Source: a virus
Taxonomy: Duplodnaviria > Caudoviricetes
Strand: one strand, 5' to 3'
Virus record (IMG/VR): IMGVR_UViG_3300011441_000001
Location: 1-44,804 of that record
DNA: 44,804 bases
Numbering within the stretch: position 1 is the first letter of the stretch; the number at the start of each line of letters is the position of its first letter. Made by a program: the position numbers and the translations under genes. Below are positions 22,710 to 42,100 of the stretch, piece after piece. The notes beneath the pieces were generated by a model. It saw only the letters and a program-made list of their open reading frames with translations. It was not told where the DNA came from and did no database searches.

Positions 22710-22739
22710 TTGACACAGCTTGACAGTCCAGACTATCTT
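22710..22739 (+). promoter_or_regulatory. Rightward early promoter TTGACA-N18-TATCTT, leaderless
   Basis: Consensus -35, TAnnnT -10 at 22734-22739, ATG at 22747 seven nt later. Confidence 0.7.
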
Positions 22740-26363: not shown

Positions 26364-26539
26364 ACCCTGGTAGCCGGGCCTGTGACCGGTGCTACGCGCA
26401 GCACCCCGAGCAGTACGACACGATGCCGACCACATGCGAGCACCTCGATCTGACACACGGTCAGCTCCCCGCGGCGGGCCCGACCGAGATCGTCGACAAC
26501 ATCCCCTGGTGGGCGGACCCTTGGTGGCTGAAGCCATGA
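26360..26539 (+). CDS. Hypothetical 59-aa protein (not in the ORF track)
   Basis: GTGA/ATGA overlaps; contains CDRC. Confidence 0.5.
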   Translation: MNPGSRACDRCYAQHPEQYDTMPTTCEHLDLTHGQLPAAGPTEIVDNIPWWADPWWLKP

Positions 26540-26739
26540 CCCAGCCCATACCCCCCGTCGACCACGACCGGCTCCTCACCGCCGGCGAGGTCGGGCGGCT
26601 GTTCCGGGTTGATCCGAAGACCGTCACCCGGTGGGCGGCCGCTGGCCGGTTGCCGTTTGTGCGGACGTTGGGTGGTCATCACCGGTTCCGTGAGTCGGTC
26701 GTGCGTGGCCTGTTGGCCCGGGATGGGGCCGGGTCATGA
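26536..26739 (+). CDS. bldC: BldC-family developmental regulator
   Basis: LLTAGEVGRLFRVDPKTVTRWAAAGRLPFVRTLGGHHRFRESVVRGLL closely matches the BldC signature LLTPxEVAxxFRVDPKTVTRWAxAGxxxSIRTLGGHRRxRExEVRALL. Confidence 0.9.
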   Translation: MTQPIPPVDHDRLLTAGEVGRLFRVDPKTVTRWAAAGRLPFVRTLGGHHRFRESVVRGLLARDGAGS

Positions 26740-27077
26740 GCCGCGCCCGCCCGATGAGCGCGACCTTCCGTGAGCTGATCTACCTCTTCGCCGGCCTCGG
26801 AGGCCCGGGTGTTGAGACTCCAGCCCCTGGGACTGTGCGCCAACGGCGCCAGCTGAAGCGGATGGGCAAACGTGAGCAGCTGCGCGGCGCCGGGGAGCTG
26901 ACCCACGGCGCCACCGGGTTACCAGTTCGCCACCCCCGCCCACCCCGGTACACCTTCGCCCAGATGCGCGGGTCGATCACCACCCACCAGGCCGCCCACT
27001 GCCCGCCGTGCCCTGACCACGACCGGCCACGGCTGCACCGTGTACCTAAACCAGCGGTGGTGTCCGATGCCGACTAG
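26736..27077 (+). CDS. Hypothetical basic protein
   Basis: Coupled overlap; HCPPCPDH. Confidence 0.55.
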   Translation: MSRARPMSATFRELIYLFAGLGGPGVETPAPGTVRQRRQLKRMGKREQLRGAGELTHGATGLPVRHPRPPRYTFAQMRGSITTHQAAHCPPCPDHDRPRLHRVPKPAVVSDAD

Positions 27078-27594
27078 CCGTTCTGATGTGGTCTGGCGCA
27101 CGACCCTGCTCGGTGTCGCTTTCCTCACGACGATCGTCGCCGCCAACTGGGCCATAGGCGAGTTCGGATTGGTCCCGGTCGGCTTCGGACTGGTCGCTCC
27201 GGCTGGCGTTGCGTTCGCTGGGCTCGCATTCACCCTGCGGGACCTACTCCACGACGCATCCGGCCGGCGGGCTGTGCTCGTCGCGATCCTGGTTGGTGCT
27301 GGGCTGTCGTTCGCCGTAGCGCCGCCCGCTGTCGCACTGGCGTCGGGGCTTGCCTTCGGTCTGTCCGAAGCGGCCGACATGGCCGTCTATACGCCGTTGC
27401 GCCACCGCCGCTGGCTGTTGGCCGTGGGTCTGTCCAACGTCGCCGGGTTGATCGTCGACTCGGTGCTGTTTCTGTGGATCGCGTTCGGGTCGCTGGAGTT
27501 CCTGCCCGGGCAGATCGTCGGCAAGACGTGGATGACCTTGCTCGCGCTCGCAGTGCTTATAACGCTACGCCGTCGTCGGATGGTGACGGCATGA
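27067..27594 (+). CDS. yhhQ: VUT/YhhQ-family 7-deazaguanine (queuosine precursor) transporter
   Basis: TIVAANW, APAG..FAGLAFTLRD, ASGLAFGLSEAAD..VY, SN..G..VDS.LFL.IAF, GQ..GK. Confidence 0.85.
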   Translation: MPTSRSDVVWRTTLLGVAFLTTIVAANWAIGEFGLVPVGFGLVAPAGVAFAGLAFTLRDLLHDASGRRAVLVAILVGAGLSFAVAPPAVALASGLAFGLSEAADMAVYTPLRHRRWLLAVGLSNVAGLIVDSVLFLWIAFGSLEFLPGQIVGKTWMTLLALAVLITLRRRRMVTA

Positions 27595-28388
27595 TCTTCT
27601 ATCTTGGCTGTCACATGCCGTCCTGGTTGGAGCGGGTCGACTTCCCCCTGTTCGTCTCCCGCACCCGGCTCACCCGCCGCAAGAGCCTGCCACGAGCCCG
27701 AGCGTCGTGGGCGTTGGACTCGGGTGGGTTCACCCAACTCGACACCCTTGGCCGCTGGACCGTGACCACCGACCAGTACGCGGCCGAAGTCCGCCGCTAC
27801 CGCGACGAGATCGGCAACCTGGCATGGGCCGCACCGATGGACTGGATGTGCGAGCCACGCGTACGCGCCCGGACCGGACTGTCGGTAGCCGAGCACCAAC
27901 GCCGAACGGTGGACAACTATCTGACCCTGCGCCAAGCCGCGCCGGACCTGCCGTTCATTGCGGTGCTGCAAGGCTGGGAACTGGCCGACTATTTGCGCTG
28001 CGTCGAACTGTATGCAGATGCATGGGTCGACCTGAGCGCTATGCCGCTGGTCGGGTTGGGGTCGGTGTGCCGGCGGCAAGCCACCGGAGAGATCGGCGCG
28101 ATTGTCACCGCCCTATCGATGCGGGGGATCGCGCTGCACGGCTTCGGTGTCAAGTCCGCCGGGCTGCGGTCCTACTCGGCGTATCTGACCTCAGCCGACT
28201 CAATGTCGTGGTCCTACCGGGGTCGGCGCACCAAACCATGCGCACATGGGCCGGCCACGTCGGAAGCCAACTGTCCCGAGTTCGCCCGGGCATGGCGCGG
28301 GCGGGTTCTTGCCGCATGCCGCTTCGGTCAGCTTGACCTTTTCGCGGCTGGCGCCCTGCACCGCTACCCGACCGAGGCTCAGCCGTGA
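27591..28388 (+). CDS. dpdA: DpdA-like TGT-fold transglycosylase (putative deazaguanine DNA modification)
   Basis: LDSGGF, PMDWMCEP, VLQG, VGLGSV, LHGFG and ADSMSW TGT-family motifs; coupled to yhhQ. Confidence 0.8.
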   Translation: MIFYLGCHMPSWLERVDFPLFVSRTRLTRRKSLPRARASWALDSGGFTQLDTLGRWTVTTDQYAAEVRRYRDEIGNLAWAAPMDWMCEPRVRARTGLSVAEHQRRTVDNYLTLRQAAPDLPFIAVLQGWELADYLRCVELYADAWVDLSAMPLVGLGSVCRRQATGEIGAIVTALSMRGIALHGFGVKSAGLRSYSAYLTSADSMSWSYRGRRTKPCAHGPATSEANCPEFARAWRGRVLAACRFGQLDLFAAGALHRYPTEAQP

Positions 28389-28576
28389 ACACGTGCGGGT
28401 GGTGCCTCGAAGCGTCCGGCTGGTGTGAGCGCACCGGCGGTACGAATCCGTGTGAAGGGCAAGGCGAGTACGACCTGATGCTCGCCGACCTTCACGCGGC
28501 CCCGATCGTCGTGGTGACGGTGCCGCGACCTGGTCGTGGGGCGGTGACGGCGCCCCCGCACCGCCCCACCCCATGA
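28385..28576 (+). CDS. Hypothetical Cys-rich protein
   Basis: GTGA overlap; CGWC..C..C. Confidence 0.5.
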   Translation: MNTCGWCLEASGWCERTGGTNPCEGQGEYDLMLADLHAAPIVVVTVPRPGRGAVTAPPHRPTP

Positions 28577-28628
28577 GCCGGGGCCGCGCCGAATGACTGG
28601 ACCTCGGCCGGCGCGGCCCCACCAAACC
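28569..28628 (+). repeat. Hairpin repeat, copy 1
   Basis: Perfect 12-bp stem 28580-28591/28609-28620; flanks CCCCATGAGCC and ACCAAACC shared with copy 2. Confidence 0.8.
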
Positions 28629-28648
28629 CACCCAACGGAGGAGACGAA

Positions 28649-28834
28649 GTGTCCACAGCAGACACCGGCACCAGGGCGCCGGAACAGGTCATGTGCGGAT
28701 GGTTCGCCATGTGCTACGAGCCCGCCACCACCACCCGGCACCACCCCATCGTCGGCGCCGTACCGATCTGCGCCCGGTGTGAGCGCTGGTACGGGGAGCT
28801 GGACTCCATCCGGCCACGGCCAACAGACAGCTAA
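28649..28834 (+). CDS. Small Zn-finger-like protein
   Basis: GGAGG RBS; CGWFAMC...HPIVGAVPICARC. Confidence 0.7.
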   Translation: MSTADTGTRAPEQVMCGWFAMCYEPATTTRHHPIVGAVPICARCERWYGELDSIRPRPTDS

Positions 28835-28835
28835 C

Positions 28836-28927
28836 CCCCATGAGCCGGGGGCCGCGTTGTTGAGGGGTGGCGCGGCCCCCACCTAACCGGGGTGGTGCCC
28901 GCTACTCGCAGTCTCGGGCACCACCCC
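28836..28927 (+). repeat. Hairpin repeat, copy 2, plus an adjacent 13-bp hairpin
   Basis: Stem 28847-28856/28871-28880; second stem 28889-28901/28915-28927. Confidence 0.8.
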
Positions 28928-28962
28928 CTCACCCCAGACAGACCAGTTAGGAGCGAGAAGAC

Positions 28963-29505
28963 ATGGCAACGCAAACCACAGACCAGCAGGCCGACACCGA
29001 CACCGTCGACCCCACCCTCCGGCAGGCCATCTACCAGCTACTACCCGCGCCGAACGGCGACGGCATCACCGTCTTCGACATCCTCTACGAGCTGCGCCGC
29101 GACTCCAGGCCGATCAACGACGGCTGGGGCGGGCTGGACCGGGCCACCATCCGGGAGCACCTCGCCGCCCTGACCGTCGAAGGCCTGGCCACGTCCACAC
29201 GGGTAGCCAGTCATCAAACCCTTTGGCGGCGCACGGCCGACCGAACGGCAGACGTGGCCGTCGCCCTCGGAAACGCCGGCCAGGTCATCACGTGGTGGGT
29301 TGCGACCCGCCGCAGCGGCATCGAGTACCACATACAAGCCCCGTGCCCGGAGCCCATGTGCGGTGACCCGTGGTGCCGGGAGGTGACCCTGTGCGGCCGG
29401 TCGATGCGCACCGGCGAACTACTCGACGCTGTCGTACTCGACGACCTCGGCGCCACACCCTGCGACCGGTGCGCCGCCCTGTCACGGTGCCGCGACGCGT
29501 CATGA
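28963..29505 (+). CDS. Hypothetical protein (winged-HTH-like N-terminus, Cys-rich C-terminus)
   Basis: AGGAG RBS; ITVFDILYEL...RATIREHLAALTVEGLA; TLCG...CDRC. Confidence 0.65.
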   Translation: MATQTTDQQADTDTVDPTLRQAIYQLLPAPNGDGITVFDILYELRRDSRPINDGWGGLDRATIREHLAALTVEGLATSTRVASHQTLWRRTADRTADVAVALGNAGQVITWWVATRRSGIEYHIQAPCPEPMCGDPWCREVTLCGRSMRTGELLDAVVLDDLGATPCDRCAALSRCRDAS

Positions 29506-29598
29506 GTGTCCAGGCGTTGGCGACGTGGTCGTGGTAGATCGCACACCGGCAAACATCAGTCATGGGTCACGACCTGCCCCGCACCGCCAAGTAGAGCT

Positions 29599-29644
29599 GG
29601 CGCCGGTGTGCTGCTGAGCCCACTGAGTCCGGTACACCGGCGCC
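29599..29644 (+). other. Hairpin upstream of the sigma gene
   Basis: GGCGCCGGTGT/ACACCGGCGCC 11-bp stem. Confidence 0.6.
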
Positions 29645-29687
29645 CCCACCACCAACCCTCATCCGAGCAGACGGGAGAACACACAGA

Positions 29688-30308
29688 ATGCTCGCCACCA
29701 CAACCCGACCGCCCGTACCACCCCAACGCCGCCACCCCGACACCGAAGCCGCCGCGTTGGCGTCGTACGCCCTCGTCCAGCAAGCCCAAGCCGGCGACCA
29801 GGCTGCGTTCGGCCTGATCTACGGCCGGTATGCGGACGTGGTGTTCCGGTTCATCTACTTCCGGGTGGGTAGCCGGCCGCTGGCCGAGGATCTGACGGCC
29901 GACACGTTCTTGCGCGCCCTCAAGCGCATAGGCAGCTTCACCTGGCAGGGCCGCGACCTGGGCGCCTGGCTGGTGACCATCGCCCGGAACCTGGTCGTCG
30001 ACCATTTCAAGTCTGTCCGGTACCGGCTGGAACGCCTCTCCGACGGTGAGGACCACGTCGAGCTGGCGGAGTGGGACCGGGACGCGGCCGACGTGGTCAT
30101 CGAGCAGGGCCTGTCAGCGGCGATACGGGCCGCCCTCGGCCAGCTCACCGCGGAGCAACGCCGGGTGATCGTCTGCCGGTTCTTGCATGGCCTTTCGGTG
30201 CTGGAGACCGCTGCCGCGGTGGGTATCAGCGAGGGTGCTTGTAAGGCGGTGCAGTACCGGGCGGTGCGTGCCCTGGCACGGGTGCCCGGATTGGCGGCCT
30301 GGCGATGA
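29688..30308 (+). CDS. bldN: ECF sigma factor, BldN/AdsA family
   Basis: AEDLTADTFLRALKRIGSFTWQGRDLGAWLVTIARNLVVDHFKS.RYRLE and RFLHGLSVLETA...EGACKAVQYRAVRALAR match the BldN signature. Confidence 0.92.
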   Translation: MLATTTRPPVPPQRRHPDTEAAALASYALVQQAQAGDQAAFGLIYGRYADVVFRFIYFRVGSRPLAEDLTADTFLRALKRIGSFTWQGRDLGAWLVTIARNLVVDHFKSVRYRLERLSDGEDHVELAEWDRDAADVVIEQGLSAAIRAALGQLTAEQRRVIVCRFLHGLSVLETAAAVGISEGACKAVQYRAVRALARVPGLAAWR

Positions 30309-30718
30309 ACGGCACACGAACCGCTGAGGGCCGGGCCAGGACCGCCGTCGATCACCCGCACGGCAGCAACACCCGCTACCGCAACGGGTGCCGATGCGGA
30401 CCATGCCGGACCGCGGCCACCGAATACGCCCGGCAGGTCCGGCAAGCCAAGCAGGGCTTACCTGCCGGTGATCCCCGGCACGGCACCGCAAACGGGTACG
30501 ACCACTGGCGCTGCCGCTGCGGGCCCTGCAACACGGCCAAGCACGCCCGTCGCAACCCCAGGCAGCTGATGGTCGCCGGAGACGGGGACCATCGTCACGG
30601 CACACACAACGGCTACTCGCACCACAGGTGCCGTTGCGAGCGGTGCCTGTCCGCCGGCCGCGCCTACAGCCGGGCAAAGTACCGCCGGCTCCACCCCGTT
30701 AGTGGTGGTGCGTCGTGA
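30305..30718 (+). CDS. Protein with three HG-x4-Y-x3/4-CRC-x2-C repeats
   Basis: HGSNTRYRNGCRCGPC, HGTANGYDHWRCRCGPC, HGTHNGYSHHRCRCERC. Confidence 0.75.
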   Translation: MNGTRTAEGRARTAVDHPHGSNTRYRNGCRCGPCRTAATEYARQVRQAKQGLPAGDPRHGTANGYDHWRCRCGPCNTAKHARRNPRQLMVAGDGDHRHGTHNGYSHHRCRCERCLSAGRAYSRAKYRRLHPVSGGAS

Positions 30719-30828
30719 TGTGGATGCAGGCGTTGGCCGGGTTCGGGCTGCTGCTCCTCGCTACCGCACTGGTGGCCGCGTGGGCTGATACGCGGCGGGC
30801 AGCACACGACGACCGAGGGCCGCGGTGA
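30718..30828 (+). CDS. 36-aa membrane peptide (not in the ORF track)
   Basis: MWMQALAGFGLLLLATALVAAWAD...; overlaps on both sides. Confidence 0.55.
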   Translation: MWMQALAGFGLLLLATALVAAWADTRRAAHDDRGPR

Positions 30829-31022
30829 TCTGGATGGTCCATATCTTCAAAGCCGCGCCTGAGGCCCGGGCGTCCTGCGACGAGCCCAACTGCACCGTCC
30901 TGTCGGTCTTCGCCAGTCGCCATCGGGTACTGGTGCACGCGCAGCACACCGGCCACACCGCCCGGTACGTGGTGGAGACCGCCACCGTTTACCGGCCGGC
31001 GAAACCTGAGGTGCCGCGATGA
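30825..31022 (+). CDS. Small Cys/His protein
   Basis: CDEPNC...HAQHTGH. Confidence 0.6.
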   Translation: MIWMVHIFKAAPEARASCDEPNCTVLSVFASRHRVLVHAQHTGHTARYVVETATVYRPAKPEVPR

Positions 31023-31456
31023 CGTACGCGGTCCTGCTGTCCCGACCAAACCGGGACCCCTACGTGTACGGCCCGTTCGGCGACCGGACCCTGGCCGCCC
31101 AGTTCGCCGCGTTCCTGCGGGCCGAGGTCGACCCGGCCGTGGTCGTGGAGGTCCTCTCCCCGGTGAGGGAGCTGCTCTGCTGGCGGGAAGGCATAAAGAT
31201 CGAGCAGGCCCATCAGCGGGCAGCCGAACAGGCCAAGACCCCGGAGTATTGGCCGCCGAAGCCAGGCGACACCTGGCAAGACCGGGTGGGCGACCGGTGG
31301 TGCTGCCAGCAAGACGGCACCCTGGCGTGCCTGGCCGTCAAAGGGATCGGACGGCCCGACGACACCGCTACGGAGATCGCCCGCGTGTACGGGCCGATGC
31401 GGCTGGTGTACCGGCCCGAGCCGACCAATCGATATCGTTGTGAGGTGCCGGGATGA
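31019..31456 (+). CDS. Hypothetical protein
   Basis: WPPKPGDTWQD...YGPMRLVYR; coupled overlaps. Confidence 0.65.
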   Translation: MTYAVLLSRPNRDPYVYGPFGDRTLAAQFAAFLRAEVDPAVVVEVLSPVRELLCWREGIKIEQAHQRAAEQAKTPEYWPPKPGDTWQDRVGDRWCCQQDGTLACLAVKGIGRPDDTATEIARVYGPMRLVYRPEPTNRYRCEVPG

Positions 31457-32487
31457 CCATCTTCGCCGTCACATCGGTGCCGCTGACCTCACACGGGGCC
31501 CGCCAATCCGTGGCCCTGTTCGGCGCCTCACCCCGCACCACCGCGGTGCCAGTCCTACCCGCCTCTCAGTACGGCACCCCCGAGTGGCTGGCCGAACGCC
31601 GGTACATGATCGGCGCCTCTGAGATGGCCGCCGTCCTCGGGCTAAGCCCCCACGCCTCCCCGTTCTCCCTGTGGTGGGCCAAACGGGAAGGCTGGGAGCT
31701 GGAGCAGACACTCGGCATGAGGATCGGTCACCTCCTCGAGCCGGTCGTCGCCGGCCTGTTCGCCGAGCTGCGCCCCGATCTGCTGGTGTGCCGGTCCAAC
31801 ACGTCGCTGTGGCGCCACCCGCACCTGGCGTGGATGGGCTGCACCCCCGATTACCTCGGGGTCCGGAGCCAACCGGAGGGCCTACCGACGGTCGAACCGA
31901 TTGAGATCAAAACTGATGAGGGCGGGTCGGGCTGGGGGCCGGCTGGTAGCGGCGAGGTGCCGGTACACCACCGGGTGCAGGTGCGCCAGCAGTGTGTGGT
32001 GTTCGGCGCCGACCGGGGGCACCTGGTGCGGCTGGCCGGTAAGCGACTGACTGCCTATGTGATCGAGTGCGATACCGCCGCGCTGGTCGAGGTGGGCGAG
32101 TGGGTCACGCAGGGCGAGGCGTTCGTGAAGTCGCTGATGGACGGCGACCCGCCCGACATCGACGGCCACAAGGCCACCACTGAGACGCTGGAGCGGCTGC
32201 ACCCGGGCCCGGACCCCGACGCCTCCACCTTCGTGGAGGACGAACTAGCGGCTCAGTACGAGTGGGCCGAAGGCGAGTACAAGGCCGCGAAACAGGTCCG
32301 GGAGCAGGCGAAGAACCTGGTACGCCACGCATTGGGTGACGCCCGGTACGGGGCGGTCGCCTCGACCGGACGGCGGTTCGTGGACCGGCGGGTCTACAAA
32401 CGACGGGCCTACGAGGTCGCAGCGTCCATGGTGGACGCCCTATATCCAGTGAAGCAACGGAAGGACACCCCCGGTGGCAACAGCTAG
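31453..32487 (+). CDS. YqaJ/RecE-like exonuclease
   Basis: EWLAERR..IGASE, G..LEP, CTPD, IEIKT, QVRQQ; adjacent to recT. Confidence 0.9.
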   Translation: MTIFAVTSVPLTSHGARQSVALFGASPRTTAVPVLPASQYGTPEWLAERRYMIGASEMAAVLGLSPHASPFSLWWAKREGWELEQTLGMRIGHLLEPVVAGLFAELRPDLLVCRSNTSLWRHPHLAWMGCTPDYLGVRSQPEGLPTVEPIEIKTDEGGSGWGPAGSGEVPVHHRVQVRQQCVVFGADRGHLVRLAGKRLTAYVIECDTAALVEVGEWVTQGEAFVKSLMDGDPPDIDGHKATTETLERLHPGPDPDASTFVEDELAAQYEWAEGEYKAAKQVREQAKNLVRHALGDARYGAVASTGRRFVDRRVYKRRAYEVAASMVDALYPVKQRKDTPGGNS

Positions 32488-33403
32488 AGGACAGACGATC
32501 GCGCCCGCGGCGGGCACCGATATTGCGCAACGCGGCAAGGGCACCCTAACCGATTTCATCGAGACCTACCAGGGTGACTTCGCTCGGGTCATGCCACCGC
32601 ACGTGTCCGTCGAGGCGTTCGTTGGTCTCGCCGCCGCCTACGTGCGCCGTGATAAGAAGCTACGGGAGGCGGCCTCCATCAACCCGGCGTCGCTGATCCT
32701 GGCCCTGCGCGAGTGCGCGGCCCTGGGCCACACACCTGTGCCTAAAGTGTTCGCGTTGGCGCCGTTCAACGACAAGAACGCTCCCGGCGGGAAGTCCATT
32801 GTGGGCATCGAGACGTACCACGGTGTGATTGAGCGGATGTACCGGGCCGGTGGGGTCCAGGCGGTCAAGAGCGAGCTGGTGCGGGTCAACGACCGGTTCG
32901 GGTGGGACCCGATGCGGCAGGCCGTGACGCGCCACGAGTACGACCCGTTTGCCACCACCAAAGACCGCGGGGAGCTGGCCGGTACGTACGCCTGGGCGGT
33001 GCTGTTCAACGGCGCCAACTCCCAGGTCGTCTGGCTCAACCGGGAGGAGGTCATGAAACACAAGGCGGTGGCGAAGACCGACGCGTTCTGGACCGGGCCG
33101 TGGGAGCCGGACATGTGGCGCAAGACCGGCCTGCACGTGCTGGAACGTTACGTGCCAACGTCGGCGGCGTACCGGTGGGAGGTGGCGATGTCCTCAGCCG
33201 GGGCCGCGACCGGCTTCACTGGTATCCCAGACCGGGGGCCGGGGGACTACGGGCCGAGCCCGGATGACGCCGTGTACGAGGCCGAGATCGTCGACGAGCG
33301 ACCAGCCTCTCCGGCTGCGGCGGGTGCTGGCCCGGAGGAGTCGAAGCCGGCCGACTGGCCAGCCGTGCGCACACCCGGCGAGTCCATCGCAGGCCAGCCG
33401 TGA
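32474..33403 (+). CDS. recT: RecT-family ssDNA annealing protein
   Basis: SLILALRECAALG, YHGVIERMYRAG, DMWRKT..H.L.RY.P.S. Confidence 0.88.
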   Translation: MATARGQTIAPAAGTDIAQRGKGTLTDFIETYQGDFARVMPPHVSVEAFVGLAAAYVRRDKKLREAASINPASLILALRECAALGHTPVPKVFALAPFNDKNAPGGKSIVGIETYHGVIERMYRAGGVQAVKSELVRVNDRFGWDPMRQAVTRHEYDPFATTKDRGELAGTYAWAVLFNGANSQVVWLNREEVMKHKAVAKTDAFWTGPWEPDMWRKTGLHVLERYVPTSAAYRWEVAMSSAGAATGFTGIPDRGPGDYGPSPDDAVYEAEIVDERPASPAAAGAGPEESKPADWPAVRTPGESIAGQP

Positions 33404-33542
33404 CCGCCGGTAAGCACCGCGGCCGCCGTCAGCCCGTCCGGGAATGGGTCAGTCTCGCCCCAGCCATCGGCCGGGTACTCCTGTGCTGTCTCGCCGCGGT
33501 GTTCCCCGCCCTGGACCGCACGACCATACCGGCAGGCCGGCT

Positions 33543-33710
33543 ATGAGCTACCACCTCGACCAGGCCCAGCGCGAGCTAGAAGGATGCGAGCGCGCCTATG
33601 ACCGGCTGGAGCGGCAGATGGACAAGCTGGAGCGGGAGAACGGTGACCTGAAGGCCGAGGTGGTCAGGTTGCGCATGGCCTTATCCGCATACGAGGTGAT
33701 GGAACCGTGA
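33543..33710 (+). CDS. Small coiled-coil protein
   Basis: Heptad pattern; coupled overlaps. Confidence 0.6.
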   Translation: MSYHLDQAQRELEGCERAYDRLERQMDKLERENGDLKAEVVRLRMALSAYEVMEP

Positions 33711-34069
33711 CCCGCCCGATAGCAGCAGCCGATCCGGGGACCTGGCACCGGGTGCAGCCCCCCGAGATCATGCGCGTCCAATACCCGGACACCCAGGTGT
33801 GGCAACGTGACGTCGCCGACGGGCACCTGTCGGTCTTCGTCGGCCGGGAACCCGCCGACGATCGGGGGAGGTGGCTGTGGCACTTGTCGATCTCACATCG
33901 CACCAACACACACCCGCCGACACCCGTGCGTTACCCGACCTGGGATGAGATCCGCGAGGCGCGGTACAGGTTCGTCCCGGATGAGGTGACGATGGCGTTG
34001 CTGCTGCCACCGGCCGCCGCGTACGTCAATGTTCACGAGACCACATTCCACCTGTGGGAGGTGGTGTAA
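33707..34069 (+). CDS. Conserved phage protein (HLSIS...PTWDE...YVNVH...HLW)
   Basis: His-rich motif widespread in phage early regions. Confidence 0.75.
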   Translation: MTRPIAAADPGTWHRVQPPEIMRVQYPDTQVWQRDVADGHLSVFVGREPADDRGRWLWHLSISHRTNTHPPTPVRYPTWDEIREARYRFVPDEVTMALLLPPAAAYVNVHETTFHLWEVV

Positions 34070-34072
34070 GCC

Positions 34073-34513
34073 GTGAAGCTGATCTTTCGGCATGCGACCC
34101 GCGGCGGGCACGTCCACATCGGAGTGTGGTCAGGTAACGGAACCGTCGGCAAAAACGGGGACCTGATCTTCCGGCCGGAAGAATGGGAAGCCCTGAAGTC
34201 CACCATCCTCGACGGTGCACGGCAGACCCGCCAGCTGGTCGAGTTCGTGGCCCTGCCGGGTGGGCCCGACGCTGGGCGGGCCAGCACCCTAACCGCCGGC
34301 ACCCTCACCGCCGAGGAGCACCGGGCCATGGAACTCACCGCCGAGCTGTGGGACGCCGTGGCTGGACTGGCCGGGGAAGGCTCACCCCGCAACAGTGACC
34401 TGGCCGAGCTGCGGCAGCACATCCACGCGGTCCAGCACACCATTCTGGCCCAGGCCGCTGCGCGGGCGTACCCGGACCGGTACCGGCTCCTCGGCTGGCC
34501 GGTGCCCCGATGA
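34073..34513 (+). CDS. Hypothetical two-module protein
   Basis: N-terminal GGHVHIGVW module; C-terminal helical HIHAVQHTILAQAAAR module. Confidence 0.65.
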   Translation: MKLIFRHATRGGHVHIGVWSGNGTVGKNGDLIFRPEEWEALKSTILDGARQTRQLVEFVALPGGPDAGRASTLTAGTLTAEEHRAMELTAELWDAVAGLAGEGSPRNSDLAELRQHIHAVQHTILAQAAARAYPDRYRLLGWPVPR

Positions 34514-34773
34514 GCTACCAGACCGCGGCGTACGACGACCCGACGGACGACGGCCAGCCGGTCGTGGTCCTCGTCGCCCGAGGCAGCCACGACGTATCAC
34601 GGCTCATCAACCTACTCACCAGCGGTCGGCACCCAACCTGCGAGCAGGTCGCACTAGGCGCTCATATTCTGAAGCAGGTCAAACGACACAACGGTGGTCG
34701 GGCCGCGTTGCGGCTACTCAAAGCCCACGGCGGCCCGGACCTGCTCGAGCCCGTGGGCGAGGCACAACCATGA
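34510..34773 (+). CDS. Hypothetical protein
   Basis: Coupled overlaps. Confidence 0.6.
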   Translation: MSYQTAAYDDPTDDGQPVVVLVARGSHDVSRLINLLTSGRHPTCEQVALGAHILKQVKRHNGGRAALRLLKAHGGPDLLEPVGEAQP

Positions 34774-35381
34774 CCGCGATCATGGGTCTCGATCTGTCGC
34801 TGTCCGCTACCGGACTGGCCACCTGGTACAGCGCCGACCACGACCGCACCCCACGAGTCGCCACCATCCGCACGCCGGCGGACTGGCCAGACGAAGGCCG
34901 GTGGGAGAAGATCGCCGGCACCGTGTGGCGGACCATCGCCGAAAACGGCCCCGACCCGTTCCGGACCCTGATCGTGGTTGAGGGCCGCATCAACATCCGC
35001 GGCCGGGCCGAACTGGTCGGCGGCAAGGCGAGGATCACCGGGGCGCGGGGCGACACCACCCTGGACCTGGCCGAGCTGCGTGGTGTCATCCGGTACGGGC
35101 TGTGGCGCCGCGGCGTCCCCGTCGCAGTGGTGCACCCCGCCACCCTGAAAAGGTTCGCCACCGGCAACGGTGCTGCGAACAAGGAGACCATGGTCCTTGC
35201 GGCCGAACGGCGCCTGGGCGCGGTGTGTCCGATCAGCAACAACAACGAAGCCGACGCGCTTTGGCTTTTGTCGATGGCGTTGCACCACCACGGCCGTCCA
35301 TTGTGCCCGATGCCGGCCAAGAACGTGGAGGCGCTGGCGTCGGTGACCTGGCCCAACTGGCGAATCGAGGAGAAAGCATGA
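34770..35381 (+). CDS. RuvC-like Holliday junction resolvase
   Basis: IMGLDLSLSATG, VVEG, PATLKRFATGNG.ANK, NEADA. Confidence 0.88.
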   Translation: MTAIMGLDLSLSATGLATWYSADHDRTPRVATIRTPADWPDEGRWEKIAGTVWRTIAENGPDPFRTLIVVEGRINIRGRAELVGGKARITGARGDTTLDLAELRGVIRYGLWRRGVPVAVVHPATLKRFATGNGAANKETMVLAAERRLGAVCPISNNNEADALWLLSMALHHHGRPLCPMPAKNVEALASVTWPNWRIEEKA

Positions 35382-35566
35382 ATGAGATTGACACCACCAA
35401 TGACCATCTGGTCGGCATGAGGGGCGACCAGGTCGTGATCGTCTTGCCACCAATGGCGCCGATGGGCCACGACGAAGCGCTACGCCTAGCCGCGTGGCTC
35501 GTCGCAGTGGCCGACCCGCTGGGCGACGACTTCGACACGGTCCGCAAGGCGGTGCTCAGCACGTGA
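35378..35566 (+). CDS. Hypothetical protein
   Basis: GAGGAG RBS; EALRLAAWLVAVAD. Confidence 0.65.
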   Translation: MNEIDTTNDHLVGMRGDQVVIVLPPMAPMGHDEALRLAAWLVAVADPLGDDFDTVRKAVLST

Positions 35567-35868
35567 AGATCAGTGAGCTGATTGTTGAACTCCTGAAGGT
35601 CCAGACCGGGCACGGCGATATCGAGGTCAGCGTGATGGAGCATGTCAGCGGCATCGAAGCCGAGGGCATCGCCGTCGAGTATAACGACGACGCGGGGATG
35701 CAACCGGCCGCGTTGATCACGGCCACGTTCCCCGACCTGGCCCACGGGTTGGAGGTAATCCGGCAGGCCGAGGCCATGACCGGTTACGACGCGGCCGTTC
35801 CACCAGACCAGGTCGCGCTCGACATCTTGCGCAACTCCGGCATCGACGACGAAGGAGCCGCCGCGTGA
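35563..35868 (+). CDS. Hypothetical protein
   Basis: MKISELIVELLKVQTGHGDIEV, a common phage N-terminal pattern. Confidence 0.65.
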   Translation: MKISELIVELLKVQTGHGDIEVSVMEHVSGIEAEGIAVEYNDDAGMQPAALITATFPDLAHGLEVIRQAEAMTGYDAAVPPDQVALDILRNSGIDDEGAAA

Positions 35869-36074
35869 GCACCATGCCCACCTTCGTCATCAAGGGCAGC
35901 GATGCGCTCGCGCCCGCGGCGATCGAGGCGTATCGCCGCTTGTGCGTCCAGTACGAGCTGCACGAGCAGGCCGAGCAGGTGCAGATGGCCCTCGACGAGA
36001 TCGAGGACTGGCAAGCCGATCACGAGGAGCTGCTGAAGCTGCCCGACCACTACCACAGAGGAGCCGCCGCGTGA
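35865..36074 (+). CDS. Hypothetical protein flanked by 16-bp direct repeats
   Basis: FVIKGSDALAPAAIEAY...KLPD; AGGAGCCGCCGCGTGA at 35853 and 36059. Confidence 0.7.
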   Translation: MSTMPTFVIKGSDALAPAAIEAYRRLCVQYELHEQAEQVQMALDEIEDWQADHEELLKLPDHYHRGAAA

Positions 36075-36601
36075 TCTTCGTTGGTGGGCCGCTCCACGGC
36101 CAAAACATTCACGTCGAAGAAACCACCCCCATCGACGGACCGCCCGTTCTCCCACCCGCCTTCGTGGACCTGGCCACCGGCGAAATGTGGCAACTCAAAC
36201 CTGTGTCGTTCCGGCTCCAAGCCGCGGTGCCGAGCCCGACCGGGCCAGTGCCTGTTGGGCCCGTGAAGACCTGGACCCACCAGGTTTACGTCCACCCCTC
36301 GCTGGGTGGGCAATCACCCGAGCAGATGAAAGGCAACCTCACTGATGCGGTGATGCTGTGGTGGTTCACCACCGGCACCCAAGGCGCCCCGAACACGACA
36401 CCCCCACCGGCGTTGGCGGCCCAGAACGGGTACCACACCACCTACCTGGCCACCTGCCAAGGCTGCCCCCACCCGCCCGAACCCATGGCCTTCGACACAC
36501 TCGCCGACCGGGCGTTGTGGGCTACCGCGCACATCGACACCACCGGCCACAAGGTCACATTCGACCAACACACCACAGAGGAGACACCACATGCCAGTTG
36601 A
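36071..36601 (+). CDS. Hypothetical protein
   Basis: FVGGPLHG N-terminus; C-terminal CQGC...WATAHIDTTGH. Confidence 0.65.
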   Translation: MIFVGGPLHGQNIHVEETTPIDGPPVLPPAFVDLATGEMWQLKPVSFRLQAAVPSPTGPVPVGPVKTWTHQVYVHPSLGGQSPEQMKGNLTDAVMLWWFTTGTQGAPNTTPPPALAAQNGYHTTYLATCQGCPHPPEPMAFDTLADRALWATAHIDTTGHKVTFDQHTTEETPHAS

Positions 36602-36983
36602 TATCCAAGCCAGCTTCTCCAAGGCGGAGAAGCTCCGCAACGGGCTGGAAGCGATCATTGCTGACCTGCTAGCCCGACCCAACGAACGCCGCTACATCAC
36701 CGCTGAGGTGGTGTGCGCCACCACGAAGATTGATCACCTGAACGGCGACGCGCGGACACCGGTGATCAAGCTTGTGGGTATTGAACCGATGCTCACCGGC
36801 GACGACATCGCCGACGCGAAGGGCCTTTACGAGCGCGCGTTCAAGGCCCGGACCGGGAACATGCCGCAGGAGCCGCTACCACTCGACGGCGACCAGCCGC
36901 AGCTACCGCTCGACGAGGGTGATGCGGACCCGGCCGCCGGGCCGTACTACCCGTCGCCGTTCAAGGAGCCCGACCCGCAGTAG
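36591..36983 (+). CDS. Hypothetical protein
   Basis: GAGGAG RBS; NGLEAI...YERAFKARTG. Confidence 0.7.
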   Translation: MPVDIQASFSKAEKLRNGLEAIIADLLARPNERRYITAEVVCATTKIDHLNGDARTPVIKLVGIEPMLTGDDIADAKGLYERAFKARTGNMPQEPLPLDGDQPQLPLDEGDADPAAGPYYPSPFKEPDPQ

Positions 36984-37195
36984 CGCCGAAGGACACCCCG
37001 ACGCTGCGCACGGATCGGCACCGGGGCGGGTTCACGACGCCAACTCTGGCGGGATGAGGAGATGGTGCATGGCCGGGCGCCGACGTCCTCCTATTGACGG
37101 CCCGTTGGATTATCGACGGTCGCCACCCGAGGTTGGAACCGACAACGACACCGGATGATCCTTGGTCTGGTGTCCATCCGGAGGGAAGCAGCTAG

Positions 37196-37972
37196 GTGCC
37201 AATCAGGTTCCAAGTGGATTCTGACTTCTACGACCACCCTAAGACCCTCGGCATGTCCGACGCCGCCACGGCGCTCTGGGTGCGTGCGGGCTCGTATTCC
37301 GCGGCGAAGCTAACAGACGGCTTCGTCGCCGAACACGTAGTCATCACGCTCTCGAAGTCGCCGCAGGACGCAGCGGATGAGCTGAGGCGCCGCGGGCTGT
37401 GGCACAAAGTCAGAGGAGGCTATCGCTTCCACCAGTGGGAGGAACGCGGGAACCTGACCCGAGAGCGCGTCGAGAGCGATCGCAAGGCCGATAGAGAGCG
37501 GAAGAAGGCCCAACGAACGGCAACGAAGGCCGATCGAGGGTCCAAGAACCACTCATCGAGTCCGCCTGTGGATAACTTCGGAACGCAACCGGAGGTGGAG
37601 GCACTGAACACAAAACGCCAGGTCAGAGGCCATAACGTCCGCCCGGATTCCCAACGGAGTCCGCCCGGATTCCCAACGGAGTCTGAGCGGATTCCGGGCG
37701 TGTCTGTGTCTGTGTCTGTGTCTGAGTCTGAGTCTGGGGCTGGACGCGGCGCCGCCGACGTCCCCACCGAGCCGCGCCGAGTCTGTGCCGATCATGCCAA
37801 CCTGGCCAACCCGCCGCCCTGTGGCGGCTGCGCTGACGCGCGCCGCAACCACGACCACTGGCGGGCCGACCGCGACCGGCGCCTCACCGCGGCGCCCCGC
37901 TGCCCGACCCACCCGACCGAGATCGTTGACAACTGCCGCTGCTGCGCAGCCGACCGCAAGGCCGCCGCATGA
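37196..37972 (+). CDS. Replication initiator-like protein
   Basis: FQVDSDFYDHPK...ALWVRAGSYSAAKLTDGFV...GLW...YRFHQW N-terminal domain; internal iterons; C-terminal Cys/His clusters. Confidence 0.8.
   Translation: MPIRFQVDSDFYDHPKTLGMSDAATALWVRAGSYSAAKLTDGFVAEHVVITLSKSPQDAADELRRRGLWHKVRGGYRFHQWEERGNLTRERVESDRKADRERKKAQRTATKADRGSKNHSSSPPVDNFGTQPEVEALNTKRQVRGHNVRPDSQRSPPGFPTESERIPGVSVSVSVSESESGAGRGAADVPTEPRRVCADHANLANPPPCGGCADARRNHDHWRADRDRRLTAAPRCPTHPTEIVDNCRCCAADRKAAA
37567..37575 (-). promoter_or_regulatory. Perfect DnaA box (TTATCCACA)
   Basis: TGTGGATAA on the + strand, about 60 bp upstream of the iterons. Confidence 0.7.
37637..37736. repeat. Putative replication origin: iterons and microsatellite
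   Basis: 22-bp GTCCGCCCGGATTCCCAACGGA x2 plus a degenerate third copy (11-bp period), then (GTGTCT)4(GAGTCT)2. Confidence 0.75.
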
Positions 37973-38000
37973 CCCGCCGACCCGAGACGGAGGCACCGCC

Positions 38001-38552
38001 GTGAACGCCGCCCAGGCCCGCCAGGTGGCCCGCCAGGCCATCGCCGATGCCCGAACACGCCACCAGGCCAGATCATGGCCTGGCAGCGAAACGGCGCCGC
38101 TTGCCGGTGCCAGCCCGCGGCCGGCCCGGACGCCTGGACCGGTGTGCGACACCTGCGGGGTCGAGCTCGACCCGGATCGAACGTGCTACGTCTGCGCTGA
38201 CGGCAGGGTCCAACACGGCCCACCCGAGGGCCCACCCGATCCGGCACCACCGGCCGGGCCCACACAGGGCGCGCCGTGGCGCCCCACCACCATCGGCGAG
38301 TATGCCAACCCGTACCTGATCTGTGACAAGTGCCGCCAGCGCACCACCGGCGGCGCGCTGGCCTGTGGTGGTTTCGTGAACCTGCCCTGCGGTCACCACG
38401 GCGATTTCCACTCGGTGTGTCCCTCGTGGTCGCCCGTCGATGGCTGCAACTGCGCCAGAGCGTTCGGTGTGGTCGAACACGGCTTCCCAACGCTGCCCCT
38501 CACAACGGACACGGCGAAAGCACATGCCACAGTGGAGGTTGGACAGTCATGA
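38001..38552 (+). CDS. Cys-rich hypothetical protein
   Basis: GGAGG RBS; CDTC, CYVC, CDKC, CPSWSPVDGCNC. Confidence 0.65.
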   Translation: MNAAQARQVARQAIADARTRHQARSWPGSETAPLAGASPRPARTPGPVCDTCGVELDPDRTCYVCADGRVQHGPPEGPPDPAPPAGPTQGAPWRPTTIGEYANPYLICDKCRQRTTGGALACGGFVNLPCGHHGDFHSVCPSWSPVDGCNCARAFGVVEHGFPTLPLTTDTAKAHATVEVGQS

Positions 38553-38812
38553 TCGATCCTGTCGAGATACGGACAGACCCGGTTACACCACACGAGTGGC
38601 AGGAGGCGGTCGATGCGGCTCACCTGTGGCTGCTCATCGACGCGGCCCGCCAGTACGGCTTGGTGACCGGCGGGCCCGCAGTGGACGTGGGCCGCTGTGA
38701 GGAGATCCTCGCTGCCGGTGCAACGGCCGGGTTCAGACCACGCGAGCTGTCCAATGGCGAGCTCCGAGAAGTGATGTTTGCGTTGCCCACAAAGATCGTG
38801 GCGGACCAGTGA
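38549..38812 (+). CDS. Hypothetical protein
   Basis: GGAGG RBS; IDAARQYGLVTGGP..DVGRCEEIL. Confidence 0.7.
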   Translation: MIDPVEIRTDPVTPHEWQEAVDAAHLWLLIDAARQYGLVTGGPAVDVGRCEEILAAGATAGFRPRELSNGELREVMFALPTKIVADQ

Positions 38813-39271
38813 GCGGGATGCCGTGGGTGGTGCGGCCGTTGGAGCCGTGGATCGGGCCGGTCACGGTCCTACGGCGGATGTCGCCGTTCTCCGCCACGTG
38901 GTCAACCACTTTGGATCTGCTGGACCGGGAGATCTGGTTCCTGGGCGGGCGCAAGTGGGTCTTGCAGATTGACGTCCCCGAGCGGTGGATCAACCGTGAT
39001 GGGACGCTCAGCGCCCGCGCGGCCGTGGCCACACCGGCCGTGCGGGTGTCCTTCGGTTCCGACCACGGGCCGTTGACGTACGGCTGCGACCGCCGCCGAA
39101 CCAAACTCACTGGGCAGGACAACGTCCGCGCGATCGCGCTGTCGCTGGAGGCGTTGCGCAAGGTGGACCGCTACGGGGTTGCTGGCAGGGCACCCGGATC
39201 TGACGGGCGACGTCGACACATTCAAACGACTCAACGTCGCCCGTGACCTCTTCAACAAGGAGGCGGCGTGA
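38809..39271 (+). pseudogene. Phage J-domain (DnaJ-like) protein broken by an internal deletion/frameshift
   Basis: N-domain ...NVRAIALSLEALRKVDRYGV; out-of-frame HPDLTGDVDTFKRLNVARDLFNKEAA* (39191-39271) whose stop overlaps the next start. Confidence 0.7.
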
Positions 39272-39774
39272 TCTCTGTCTGGGCCGCTGAGGAGGCGCGA
39301 TATGACCTGTACGTCTATCTATCCACCCACGTACCCGACCACGCCCAGGCGATCGCGGATCTCGTCACTGCCCACCTGGGCAGCATGGACGCCCGCGCGG
39401 ACCTGGCCGACATCGTCGCCGGGTACGTGCCGGATCACGCGCTCGCTACCGTGGTCGAGCAGCTGTGCTACGCGGGCGTCGTGACCAGGGCGCAGCACGA
39501 CGCCGCGGTCACACGAGAAACCACCTGGGGCCAACACCTGGGCGTGCAGTTGGAGGCAGCTGAGCGGCGGGCCAGTGCGGCGCTGTGGGCGGTGAACCGG
39601 TCCTCGCTTGCGCGGGCACGAACGGCGGTGGCGGTCGCGGTGGAGGCACGGAGTAAGTTGCCCACGTCGTCGCCGGGGTGGCGCCTGGCGGACCGGATCA
39701 TTCAGATCTTCGACTCGGCGCAGACCCTGGAGCTGATCGACGGGGAGCTGTACGGCGTGAGGGAGCCCAAGTGA
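39268..39774 (+). CDS. Hypothetical protein
   Basis: AAGGAGG RBS. Confidence 0.65.
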   Translation: MISVWAAEEARYDLYVYLSTHVPDHAQAIADLVTAHLGSMDARADLADIVAGYVPDHALATVVEQLCYAGVVTRAQHDAAVTRETTWGQHLGVQLEAAERRASAALWAVNRSSLARARTAVAVAVEARSKLPTSSPGWRLADRIIQIFDSAQTLELIDGELYGVREPK

Positions 39775-40034
39775 TCCGGGCGCAGATGCCGCCTGCGCAG
39801 CTGACCACGTGCGGCACGTGCGGGGCCGAGGTGGCGTGGGCGACGACGGACAACGCGAAGAAGATGCTGGTGGAGGTGTCGCCGGACCCGACCGGGAATT
39901 TGGTGCTGTCGTTGACGGGTGCTGGTTTGGTGCATGCGCGGGTGGTGGCGGCGAAGTTGGCGTTTGGGCGTGCGGATTTACACCTGTCGCATTTTGCGCG
40001 GTGTAAGCAGGCGTCGTCGTGGCGGCGTCGGTGA
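39771..40034 (+). CDS. Zn-ribbon-like protein
   Basis: CGTCGAEVAWATT...HFARC. Confidence 0.7.
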   Translation: MIRAQMPPAQLTTCGTCGAEVAWATTDNAKKMLVEVSPDPTGNLVLSLTGAGLVHARVVAAKLAFGRADLHLSHFARCKQASSWRRR

Positions 40035-40513
40035 CCGCCGATCGCTCGGAGCGCCTGGCCCTGTCACCGGACGGGCACACGGTAGCCGTCCGGGCGTACC
40101 AGGGCGGTATGTGGTTGGCAGTGAACACGGCGCGGGTGGCCGGGCAGCACCTTTCCGACCTGCCAGCGGACTGGACCCGGTTCACGCCCGCCAGCGACAG
40201 AGACCTCGCCGCAGACACCCTGGACAGCCTGCTCCAGGCGGCAGAGGAGATTACCGCTGAGCTGCGTTACCTGCGTCGGGGACTGCCCAAGGTGGAGGCC
40301 GCGCCGGACCCGTTCGCGCTGGCCGAGTCGCTGCGTCGGGTTCGGTCCGAGTCAGGGCTGAGTCTGCGGGCACTGGAGGCCGAGATTGGCGTGCCGTTCA
40401 ACTGCCTGTCCCGTGTGGAGCGTGGCGTCGGGTTGGCGTCACCGATCAACGCGCAACGTATCCACAATTGGTTGTCCGGCTATGAACCAACCACGGTCGA
40501 GCCTGTTTCGTGA
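40031..40513 (+). CDS. XRE-family HTH protein (C-terminal HTH)
   Basis: LRRVRSESGLSLRALEAEIGVPFNCLSRVERG. Confidence 0.8.
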   Translation: MTADRSERLALSPDGHTVAVRAYQGGMWLAVNTARVAGQHLSDLPADWTRFTPASDRDLAADTLDSLLQAAEEITAELRYLRRGLPKVEAAPDPFALAESLRRVRSESGLSLRALEAEIGVPFNCLSRVERGVGLASPINAQRIHNWLSGYEPTTVEPVS

Positions 40514-40524
40514 TCAGCGAAACA

Positions 40525-40790
40525 CACAACGGGACCCCCGTTGTGAGGGGGTTACGGTCCGGTCCCCATGTGGTCTTGGCGGCCGGCGCACAAACGGCGG
40601 GCCGGTTGGGTGCTCGTAGGATTGCCCGGCCGCCGTGGCCTGGTGGTAGCGTCCCCGGCCAGGTAACTAACTCCATGCCCAGGGCCGCCTGAGCCCGACC
40701 GCCGCCGATTGGTGGCGTGTCTGGTGGCGGCCCGCACGGTCCCGAACCTGGGTTGTGCGGTGCACGTGTGAGTACCCCTGGGCCACACCA
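40525..40790 (+). ncRNA. Candidate structured RNA leader
   Basis: A run of six stems, e.g. CACAACGGG/CCCGTTGTG, GGCGGCCGG/CCGGCCGCC, GGGCCGCC/GGCGGCCC, CCGCAC/GTGCGG; family not recognised. Confidence 0.35.
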
Positions 40791-40802
40791 TCGGGAGCAG
40801 AA

Positions 40803-41522
40803 TTGTTACGCACCTGGCGGCGGCCCCTTGTGGCCCTCGCAATCGTGGCCGGCATTGTCCTGTCCGCCACACCTTCTGACGCGGTGACCGCGCCCAACCG
40901 GGCGAGCACGGTCACCGCTGCTGTTTCCGCGCAGGTGCTGCGTGAGGGCGTCCTGGCCGCCCAGGTGGTGATCGCGAGGTGGGGTGACACCCTGTTCGCC
41001 CTGGCCGCCCGGCACTGCGGGTCGGGGTGGCTGTTCCGGCGTCTGGCCGCGGCCAGCGGCATCCCGGATCCGGATCGGATCTACGCGGGTCGTACCCGTG
41101 TGGTGATCTCCTGTACGCCGGCGGCGCCGGCACCACGACCAGCCGCCGCCAGCACATTGACGGCTCGCGAATCGCGAATCGTCAAGCTCCTCGCGTACGC
41201 CCGGGCCCAGGTTGGTGACCCGTACGTGTGGGCCGCGGCCGGGCCGAACAGTTTCGACTGCTCCGGCCTGGTCATGGCCTCCTACGCGAGGGTCGGGGTG
41301 CGGTTGCCGCACCAGTCCGGGTCGATGCTGGGCTACGGCCGGTACGTCAGCAGGGCGAATCTGCGCCCCGGTGATGTGATCTGGCCGTACGTACAGCGGG
41401 GGACCCGCGGGCATGTGGTCATCTACCTGGGCGGCGGGAAGATCATCGAGTCGCCGCAGCCTGGGCAGCGGGTGCGGGTCACGACCCTGTACGCGTTCTG
41501 GACCGCCCGCCGCATGATCTGA
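40803..41522 (+). CDS. Secreted LysM + NlpC/P60 peptidoglycan endopeptidase
   Basis: Signal peptide; GDTLFALA...IPDPDRIYAG (LysM); PYVWAAAGPNSFDCSGL, GHVVIY; TTG start after GGGAG. Confidence 0.9.
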   Translation: MLRTWRRPLVALAIVAGIVLSATPSDAVTAPNRASTVTAAVSAQVLREGVLAAQVVIARWGDTLFALAARHCGSGWLFRRLAAASGIPDPDRIYAGRTRVVISCTPAAPAPRPAAASTLTARESRIVKLLAYARAQVGDPYVWAAAGPNSFDCSGLVMASYARVGVRLPHQSGSMLGYGRYVSRANLRPGDVIWPYVQRGTRGHVVIYLGGGKIIESPQPGQRVRVTTLYAFWTARRMI

Positions 41523-41649
41523 ATGCCGATCCGGGAGTGGGTGTCGCCGCTCATAATCCACACTCCTCGTGCTCGGTGCTTCAAATAATAGCGGCAATGT
41601 TAGATTCGTGAGCCATCTATCGATTGGATGAGCTATGCACACGCTCCAC

Positions 41650-42100
41650 AAACTGCGGTCCCGCCTCGGCGTGGTCGCCGCCGGATCTGGCCGCCAACAA
41701 CGGCCGTCCGACGATCATCTACTACCACCACGCCACCTGGAGCAGCGGCAGCCACGGCTCACGCACCGACCACGAGTACCTCAAGGCCATCGTGCTGGCC
41801 GACCGGGATGTCCAGCTGGTGTTGGCCGGGCATGACCACGAGTACGAACGGTTCGCCCCGATGGGCCAGTCCGGCCCGGACCCGGCCGGCGCCCGGTACT
41901 TCGTGGTCGGCACCGGCGGTAAAGGCCCGCAGTGCGGCGGCGCCCCCATCGCGGGCACGGTCGTGAAGAACTGCACGACGATGGGTGTGCTCCGGCTGGT
42001 GTTGCGCCCGAACGGCTATGAATGGCAATTCCACGCGGCGGCTGAGGTTGGCGGGCCGGCGAGCGCGTTCACCGATTCAGGCAACTCCGCGCTGAGGTAG
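41650..42100 (+). pseudogene. C-terminal half of a calcineurin-like metallophosphoesterase
   Basis: DLAAN..IYYHH..SSGSHG, VLAGHDHEYER, FVVGTGG are present; N-terminal DxG/GDxxY/GNH motifs are absent. Confidence 0.75.

Follow-up and report, generated by a model that had tools for sequence, protein, structure and literature searches.

The DNA analysed here, the IMG/VR virus record IMGVR_UViG_3300011441_000001 (the whole stretch of 44,804 nucleotides, hereafter the window), is a complete temperate siphovirus genome of 44.7 kb, which carries among its early genes a sigma factor gene that, by the comparisons given below, descends from host BldN, the developmental sigma factor of actinomycetes, and which lacks rsbN, the gene for its anti-sigma factor. 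The host is probably Micromonosporaceae-like, a placement drawn from sequence likeness only. Such rsbN-less sigma-BldN genes recur in phages and prophages and seem to be the actinomycete counterpart, so far undescribed, of the sporulation sigma factors of Bacillus phages. With moderate confidence, the phage protein may be read as an early, RsbN-insensitive sigma factor that would fire host BldN promoters ahead of schedule. The gene in question is the following:

29688 to 30308, plus strand: BldN-derived extracytoplasmic function (ECF) sigma factor of 206 amino acids, with a short N-terminus and no adjacent rsbN.

The initial annotation had called this gene a BldN-family sigma factor. The assignment holds in that BldN (TIGR02952) is the best-matching family and the identity to host BldN is 59–64% (among the 80 best of 482 confirmed hits in genomes, almost all of them from Micromonosporaceae), but the score of 162.4 bits lies under the family cut-off of 206.45, which is passed by 318 of the 390 matching Micromonosporaceae genomes. 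The closest solved structure is chain 6dxo_A (E 3.5e-47), whose residues agree with the Streptomyces venezuelae BldN numbering of PMC6101532. At 16 of the 21 columns that separate Micromonosporaceae from Streptomyces the phage protein has the Micromonosporaceae residue, and the G+C content at third codon positions (GC3) of its gene equals that of the core phage genes. Only 28 residues precede the core, against a median of 129 in the called genes of the closest database relatives, a shortfall of about 100. The linker between the sigma2 and sigma4 domains is unlike that of the host and has about the length of the Streptomyces BldN linker. With sigma2 and sigma4 intact and a linker of this length, the protein fits an active sigma factor.

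Among GenBank phages no BldN-like sigma factor was found (21 records match, the best with only 29–30% identity), whereas scanning IMG/VR with a profile turned up nine other contigs that have the gene, at 42–64% identity, and a tenth viral record (G895) was found later through its BldC gene. The gene occupies an early-gene position in all nine records, following closely on integrase or repressor-like genes wherever the contig shows them, and the nine share only one to nine other proteins with the window. Sequencing run X1, possibly the source of the window, holds a second contig of lower depth with a related sigma gene followed by the same downstream gene (aligned to window positions 29678–30680). 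One complete phage, L015/G883, shares this early layout and has a BldC-family gene but no sigma gene.

In Micromonosporaceae, 390 of 401 genomes have a match and 46 have two or more; 50 extra matches were retrieved, three of which were ordinary bldN-rsbN loci, leaving 47. Seven of these copies are prophage-like (L216, L219, L231, L232, L238, L242 and L246), those of L232 and L246 being identical to viral records L167 and L171. Copies of Streptomyces type were also found (L169, L170 and L375–L377). Genomes flagged as unpublished (G077, G118, G150, G210, G225, G229 and G430) were counted in tallies only, and the Pfam scan of neighbouring genes excluded 12 near-identical second-copy loci (L220, L222–L229, L248, L254 and L256). 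A separate observation concerns L220–L229, where ten genomes have a chromosomal BldN-like paralogue that is conserved, lacks rsbN and has helix-turn-helix (HTH) genes on its flanks. A first tree of 110 rows, made by quick search, has many long branches, while in a reduced tree of 35 rows the 14 phage-type copies all fall on the same side (support 77); because they group together, being compatible with one capture, the idea of independent captures of BldN by phages was dropped.

A profile of RsbN built from host loci has no match in the window or in any viral record; its matches, 18 loci, are all host-type or chromosomal, and at one host locus (L130) a DUF5667 gene adjoins bldN. The residues through which BldN is held by RsbN were taken from the S. 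venezuelae structure, in which Asp20 of BldN forms a salt bridge with Arg67 of RsbN and Leu119 helps to form the pocket for helix 3 of RsbN (PMC6101532). All 44 host proteins have Asp at position 20, and host RsbN keeps the opposite Arg; in the phage and prophage copies Asp20 is changed in 12 of 14, to nine different residues (two of the 12 changes being to the mild Glu), which makes it the most-changed among 97 host-invariant positions. The window has Gly46 at this place and Arg147 at that of Leu119, a position changed in 7 of the 14 copies. The parts expected to read promoters are more host-like: residues 53–85 (the sigma2 loop and region 2.4) equal the host consensus at 31 of 33 positions and sigma4 is as in the host at 9 of 11 chosen positions, both sets being the analyst's choice, and positions 58–83 changed least across the copies (14% versus 22% at other invariant positions).

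Candidate target promoters were sought through the host loci. The −35 element CGTAAC follows bldN in 76 of 80 of them, with CGTT 16–17 bases further on in nearly all, and the full pattern CGTAAC-N16–18-CGTTK is found after bldN in about 75 of the 80, just before rsbN, a known BldN target (PMC6101532). Across 61 Micromonosporaceae genomes the strict pattern has 481 matches versus 195 for the reversed control (a total summed by hand), a 2.5-fold excess. The window and the nine other phage records contain no perfect BldN-consensus promoter; one-mismatch sites in the window number 6 versus 4.9 expected, which is chance level, and a relaxed plus-strand scan of the window gave three sites, all within open reading frames (ORFs). 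No BldN site stands before bldC or the NlpC/P60 gene of the phage itself.

Taken together, the proposed course of events is as follows. The phage carries an apparently host-derived sigma-BldN without rsbN, which would likely be made early in infection or on induction, under control of the repressor, and would likely escape the host anti-sigma factor RsbN through weakened binding. It would then send the host's RNA polymerase prematurely to the host's own BldN promoters. Deletion of rsbN in S. venezuelae leads to precocious development (PMC6101532), so that a premature BldN-on state resembling an rsbN deletion is the simplest prediction and the most likely outcome. The gain to the phage may be entry into spores, or an infected hypha shielded from other phages. 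Action of phage sigma factors on host sporulation genes has been described for Bacillus phages (10.1101/2021.11.12.468384). The earlier suggestion that this phage touches host development can thus be retained for the sigma factor, on account of its host-like reading block, its early recurrence, the lack of rsbN, the changed RsbN contact and the lack of a consensus phage promoter, but not for the three-gene system in which it had been placed.

Several points weigh against a factor that turns on the host BldN regulon. BldN-dependent development makes S. venezuelae mycelium less susceptible to phage and helps to contain it (PMC10117723), so turning BldN on could cost the phage. With regard to RsbN, the 12 invariant contacts, taken as a set, are changed in 30% of cases versus 22% at other invariant positions, which is no significant excess (permutation p=0.105), Asp20 was singled out post hoc as the top of 97 positions, 13 of the 18 RsbN contacts of the window protein still equal the host consensus, and relaxed constraint once rsbN was gone could yield the same pattern of contact changes. 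Sigma4 of the window differs from the host at Lys152, Asn153, Ile157 and Leu160, near the −35 reader. As about 0.15 perfect sites per window are expected by chance, finding none indicates that the phage has no consensus target, not that sites were depleted or purged, and the consensus scan leaves room for a phage promoter of diverged sequence. In two host genomes the genes found behind strict sites are rsbN, one NlpC/P60 and one UPF0182 gene, and genes for PAS-domain proteins and methyltransferases; these not being recognisable sporulation genes, the host BldN regulon is not obviously a sporulation regulon. Finally, many of the 47 extra BldN-like copies are chromosomal paralogues and not phage genes.

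A more far-reaching form of this reading is offered tentatively, as something possible which we would not expect to hold in full: the captured sigma-BldN, its Asp20 contact repeatedly broken, would be an uninhibitable switch driving the infected mycelium to differentiate, tuned by BldC in some phages, with related mobile elements doing likewise by means of a sigma-Lsr2-diguanylate cyclase cassette. That cassette was observed at three of the 47 extra loci, on contigs of 42–70 kb (L240:8279-10181, L243:8283-10086 and L247:9434-11279), and consists of a diverged BldN-like sigma factor, an Lsr2-domain protein and a GGDEF diguanylate cyclase, all of which touch developmental control. WhiB-like genes were also seen in two sigma-bearing prophage regions, L242:6205-7561 (by Pfam) and L170:7350-7637 (by eye).

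Instead, the phage might have turned the sigma factor into a transcription factor for its own middle or late genes, one that reads a diverged promoter on the phage genome. Its place in the early region, as with phage activators, and the four sigma4 changes near the −35 reader would suit such a role, as would freedom from RsbN. We nevertheless consider it unlikely, given that no perfect site was found in the ten phage genomes, that one-mismatch sites are at chance and those of the relaxed scan inside ORFs, and that the gene seems dispensable in this design, as the complete phage L015/G883 does without it.

It is more doubtful still that the protein opposes development, whether as a decoy or poor activator that competes for BldN promoters or the core polymerase, or by mistiming the regulon, so that sporulation fails and hyphae stay infectable. 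This would agree with the large clear plaques formed on a bldN mutant and the repression of developmental genes early in infection (PMC10117723), with the reduction of spore yield through misregulation by Bacillus phage sigma factors (10.1101/2021.11.12.468384), and with the un-host-like linker of the window protein. However, intact sigma2 and sigma4 and a linker of Streptomyces length fit an active sigma factor, and the changed RsbN contacts speak against a role in soaking up RsbN.

The initial annotation had joined the sigma factor with two further genes, a BldC homologue and a secreted cell-wall endopeptidase, into one phage system for taking over host sporulation, encoded in one rightward operon:

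26536 to 26739, plus strand: BldC-family (MerR-like, Xis-like) DNA-binding protein of 67 amino acids.
40803 to 41522, plus strand: predicted secreted LysM-NlpC/P60 peptidoglycan endopeptidase.

All three genes are intact and host-like, yet such a takeover system is not supported, and we regard it as very unlikely. The BldC call itself is confirmed, the ORF being present and scoring 83.7 bits on the BldC family NF033787, over the cut-off of 77. Twelve of 13 structurally defined BldC residues are identical (Leu11, Glu16, Phe21, Arg22, Val23, Lys26, Arg30, Trp31, Thr42, Leu43, Gly44 and His46), the thirteenth being a change of Ile40 to Val, so the protein is predicted to be able to bind DNA in the manner of BldC. 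It thus resembles Streptomyces BldC (PMC5859096, PMC6428758) in passing NF033787 and keeping the named residues, but over its core (50 residues) it is only 68% identical to the canonical protein, and 74% to a second paralogue found in Micromonosporaceae, whereas canonical host copies are 86–100% identical among themselves; in host-likeness it ranks 64th of 87 non-host copies. Like Gp36 of mycobacteriophage D29, which binds direct repeats and represses phage genes (PMC12266134), it is a small MerR-like phage protein of BldC fold; in contrast to Gp36 and to regulators of the Xis or recombination directionality factor type, it belongs to the BldC family by its sequence, and a separate HTH_17 gene occupies the Cro/Xis position. 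BldC-family genes are a common phage accessory, with 118 confirmed viral stretches and 188 GenBank records, 138 of them from Microbacterium phages. BldC cores 94–100% identical to canonical host BldC were seen on viral contigs L004 (where a RecT gene lies near BldC), L020, L026, L036, L039, L049 and L053. The second BldC-family paralogue, about 78% identical to the canonical one, is highly conserved in Micromonosporaceae and some other actinomycetes (L182–L184, L385).

For the endopeptidase, the LysM and NlpC/P60 domains both score over the Pfam cut-offs (PF00877 at 75.2 bits), which bears out that part of the call, while its secretion is predicted from an N-terminus that by eye is basic, then hydrophobic and signal-peptide-like. 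A Cys153-His204-Glu216 triad can be read by eye, its Cys and His invariant in 18 relatives. Full-length LysM-NlpC/P60 relatives number about 25, several of them on contigs of 36–58 kb; the gene follows lysis-type genes in L490 and L491 and a terminase-like gene in L494. A host NlpC/P60 gene (L602, G010:C1:335897) has a BldN-type site 20 bases before its frame.

The single operon is doubtful, as a minus-strand ORF (22968–23534) lies within the run, distances of 3 kb and 10.5 kb separate the three genes, and a conserved leader of its own precedes the NlpC/P60 gene. The expected co-occurrence did not emerge. BldC and the sigma factor are found together in 5 of 11 sigma-bearing viral records (the window, G003, G006, G009 and G895, the last of these found through BldC), but the association is not significant: a BldC match of at least 59 bits occurs in 3 of 9 sigma-bearing records versus 2 of 21 controls, which were capsid- or portal-related records, many of them incomplete (p=0.14, or p=0.067 with the window included), and the sigma gene is present in 1 of 50 BldC-bearing records (the 50 of 80 BldC loci searched genome-wide). 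The NlpC/P60 domain was found by Pfam in 0 of 8 sigma-bearing records and by tblastn in 0 of 9, and the five closest NlpC-bearing viral records all lack the sigma gene, a single one of them scoring over the cut-off for BldC. In one Micromonospora genome a BldN-type site is found before the second bldC paralogue and before an NlpC/P60 gene; as a general feature the site before this paralogue was rejected, being present at 1 of 4 such loci, and the phage copies of both genes are without it. BldC sites, for their part, cannot be predicted from sequence (PMC6428758). A functional link between BldC and the sigma factor is possible; the BldC-family gene and the NlpC/P60 gene are each taken to be an accessory gene in its own right, the latter being best seen, given its lack of co-occurrence with the sigma gene, as an unlinked one.

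That the sigma factor is a drifting passenger from the host with no selected role is hardly credible, as the long branches in both sigma trees and the many changed host-invariant positions are countered by intact frames at a similar genome position in phages with so few other proteins in common, by the low rate of change at positions 58–83 and by a GC3 equal to that of core phage genes.

The genome in which these genes lie has its first 123 bases repeated as its last 123, and in sequencing run X1 the joint is circular with an even depth of about 20; the contig is therefore a circular genome. A second run, X2, gave short diverged pieces only. The gene content includes portal, protease, capsid and tail genes, a GH25 endolysin, a holin-like gene, a tyrosine integrase, a repressor, RecE/RecT, RuvC, a replication initiator and HNH, and a terminase-like frame runs off the right end of the window. 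The further features of the lysis, lysogeny and early regions are:

18963 to 21112, plus strand: lysis region, with the GH25 endolysin at 18963–20018 and the holin-like gene at 20339–21112.
21251 to 22114, minus strand: tyrosine integrase.
22232 to 22687, minus strand: repressor-like HTH gene, oriented divergently to the early region.
22710 to 22739, plus strand: promoter-like site of housekeeping type (TTGACA-18-TATCTT), probable early rightward promoter.
22747 to 22941, plus strand: second HTH_17/MerR-like gene, in the usual Cro/Xis position.
22968 to 23534, minus strand: ORF of 188 amino acids inside the early region, encoding a proline- and threonine-rich predicted membrane protein with no family match.
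27040 to 28388, plus strand: Vut_1 transporter-like gene and DpdA, a 7-deazaguanine DNA-modification module, directly 3' of bldC and before the sigma gene.
40672 to 40802, plus strand: candidate structured cis-regulatory leader of the NlpC/P60 gene.

The promoter-like site points away from the repressor and has all three genes of the proposed system downstream; a scan of the window found one sigma70-like site versus 1.5 expected by chance, and because this count is no higher than chance, it is the position of the site that speaks for it. A C5 methyltransferase-like gene lies at 25268–25924. GC-rich hairpins, repeated and then followed by C-rich runs, were seen between early genes at 28570–28945 and 29575–29660, the latter just 5' of the sigma gene; repeat and terminator scans of the window gave nothing above chance. 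A metallophosphoesterase fragment, possibly a remnant, lies at 41624–42100, 3' of the NlpC/P60 gene.

The leader of the NlpC/P60 gene is a candidate for a new cis-regulatory RNA, its RNA nature and function being proposed from the following pattern. The roughly 130 bases 5' of the gene have a common arrangement in the window, four viral and two host relatives, namely a variable domain closed by a helix, then a conserved stretch resembling GCRWGAGWGC and after it GGAG. A model built from these seven sequences gave eight further matches in 1.55 Mb, all at host NlpC/P60 loci, together with one probable false hit; the NlpC/P60 catalytic motif lies downstream in eight of nine new leader loci, the ninth being cut by a contig end, and matches were found in 13 of 121 Micromonosporaceae genomes. 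The leader loci are the window, L490, L491, L492, L494, L571–L576, L579–L582, L586–L592, L594 and L595. Helix P1 pairs in 95.5% of cells versus 83.8% in shuffles, on an alignment fitted to the leader model, and the pairing falls off when the helix is slid; a fresh alignment of 17 leaders has 13 pairs, 10 of them with compensatory changes, and the fold of the window leader has z = −3.0. A c-di-AMP riboswitch or another Rfam family was considered, and Rfam gave no meaningful match for the window and 12 related loci. A strict DNA pattern for the leader was found at 0 of 583 loci, and, applied class-wide, the leader model gave three borderline matches in 141 genomes, none before an NlpC/P60 gene. 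A search of mostly open-access papers found no description of such a leader.

Compared with known systems, the sporulation-like sigma factors of Bacillus phages (10.1101/2021.11.12.468384) are closest in kind, both being host-like developmental sigma factors of phages with a spore-forming host (here a presumed one) and with a predicted action on host genes. They are of the SigF, SigG, SigE and SigK types, whereas that of the window is an actinomycete ECF sigma factor with signs of escape from a membrane anti-sigma factor, and is known from sequence alone. With the Streptomyces sigma-BldN/RsbN pair (PMC6101532) it has in common the family, a near-identical −10-reading block and intact sigma2 and sigma4, but it is phage-borne, without rsbN, changed at the Asp20 and Leu119 contacts and below the TIGR02952 cut-off. 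Host-like developmental regulators of WhiB and Lsr2 type are known in actinobacteriophages, more than 10% of whose genomes have MerR-type domains (PMC8612146); in the main text of that paper 'sigma' and 'Bld' do not occur. No description of a phage-encoded BldN was found in the literature searched, mostly open access, and the supplementary tables of phage sigma factors (PMC8612146, 10.1101/2021.11.12.468384) may include BldN-like sigma factors.

The leader of the NlpC/P60 gene is a separate lead, towards a family-specific regulatory RNA of cell-wall hydrolases. As for the sigma factor, the phage alleles are natural variants with which the RsbN interface and the Micromonosporaceae BldN regulon may be probed. 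Manipulation of development by actinophages has been suspected mainly from their whiB genes, and a recurrent phage sigma-BldN would give a direct test of it.

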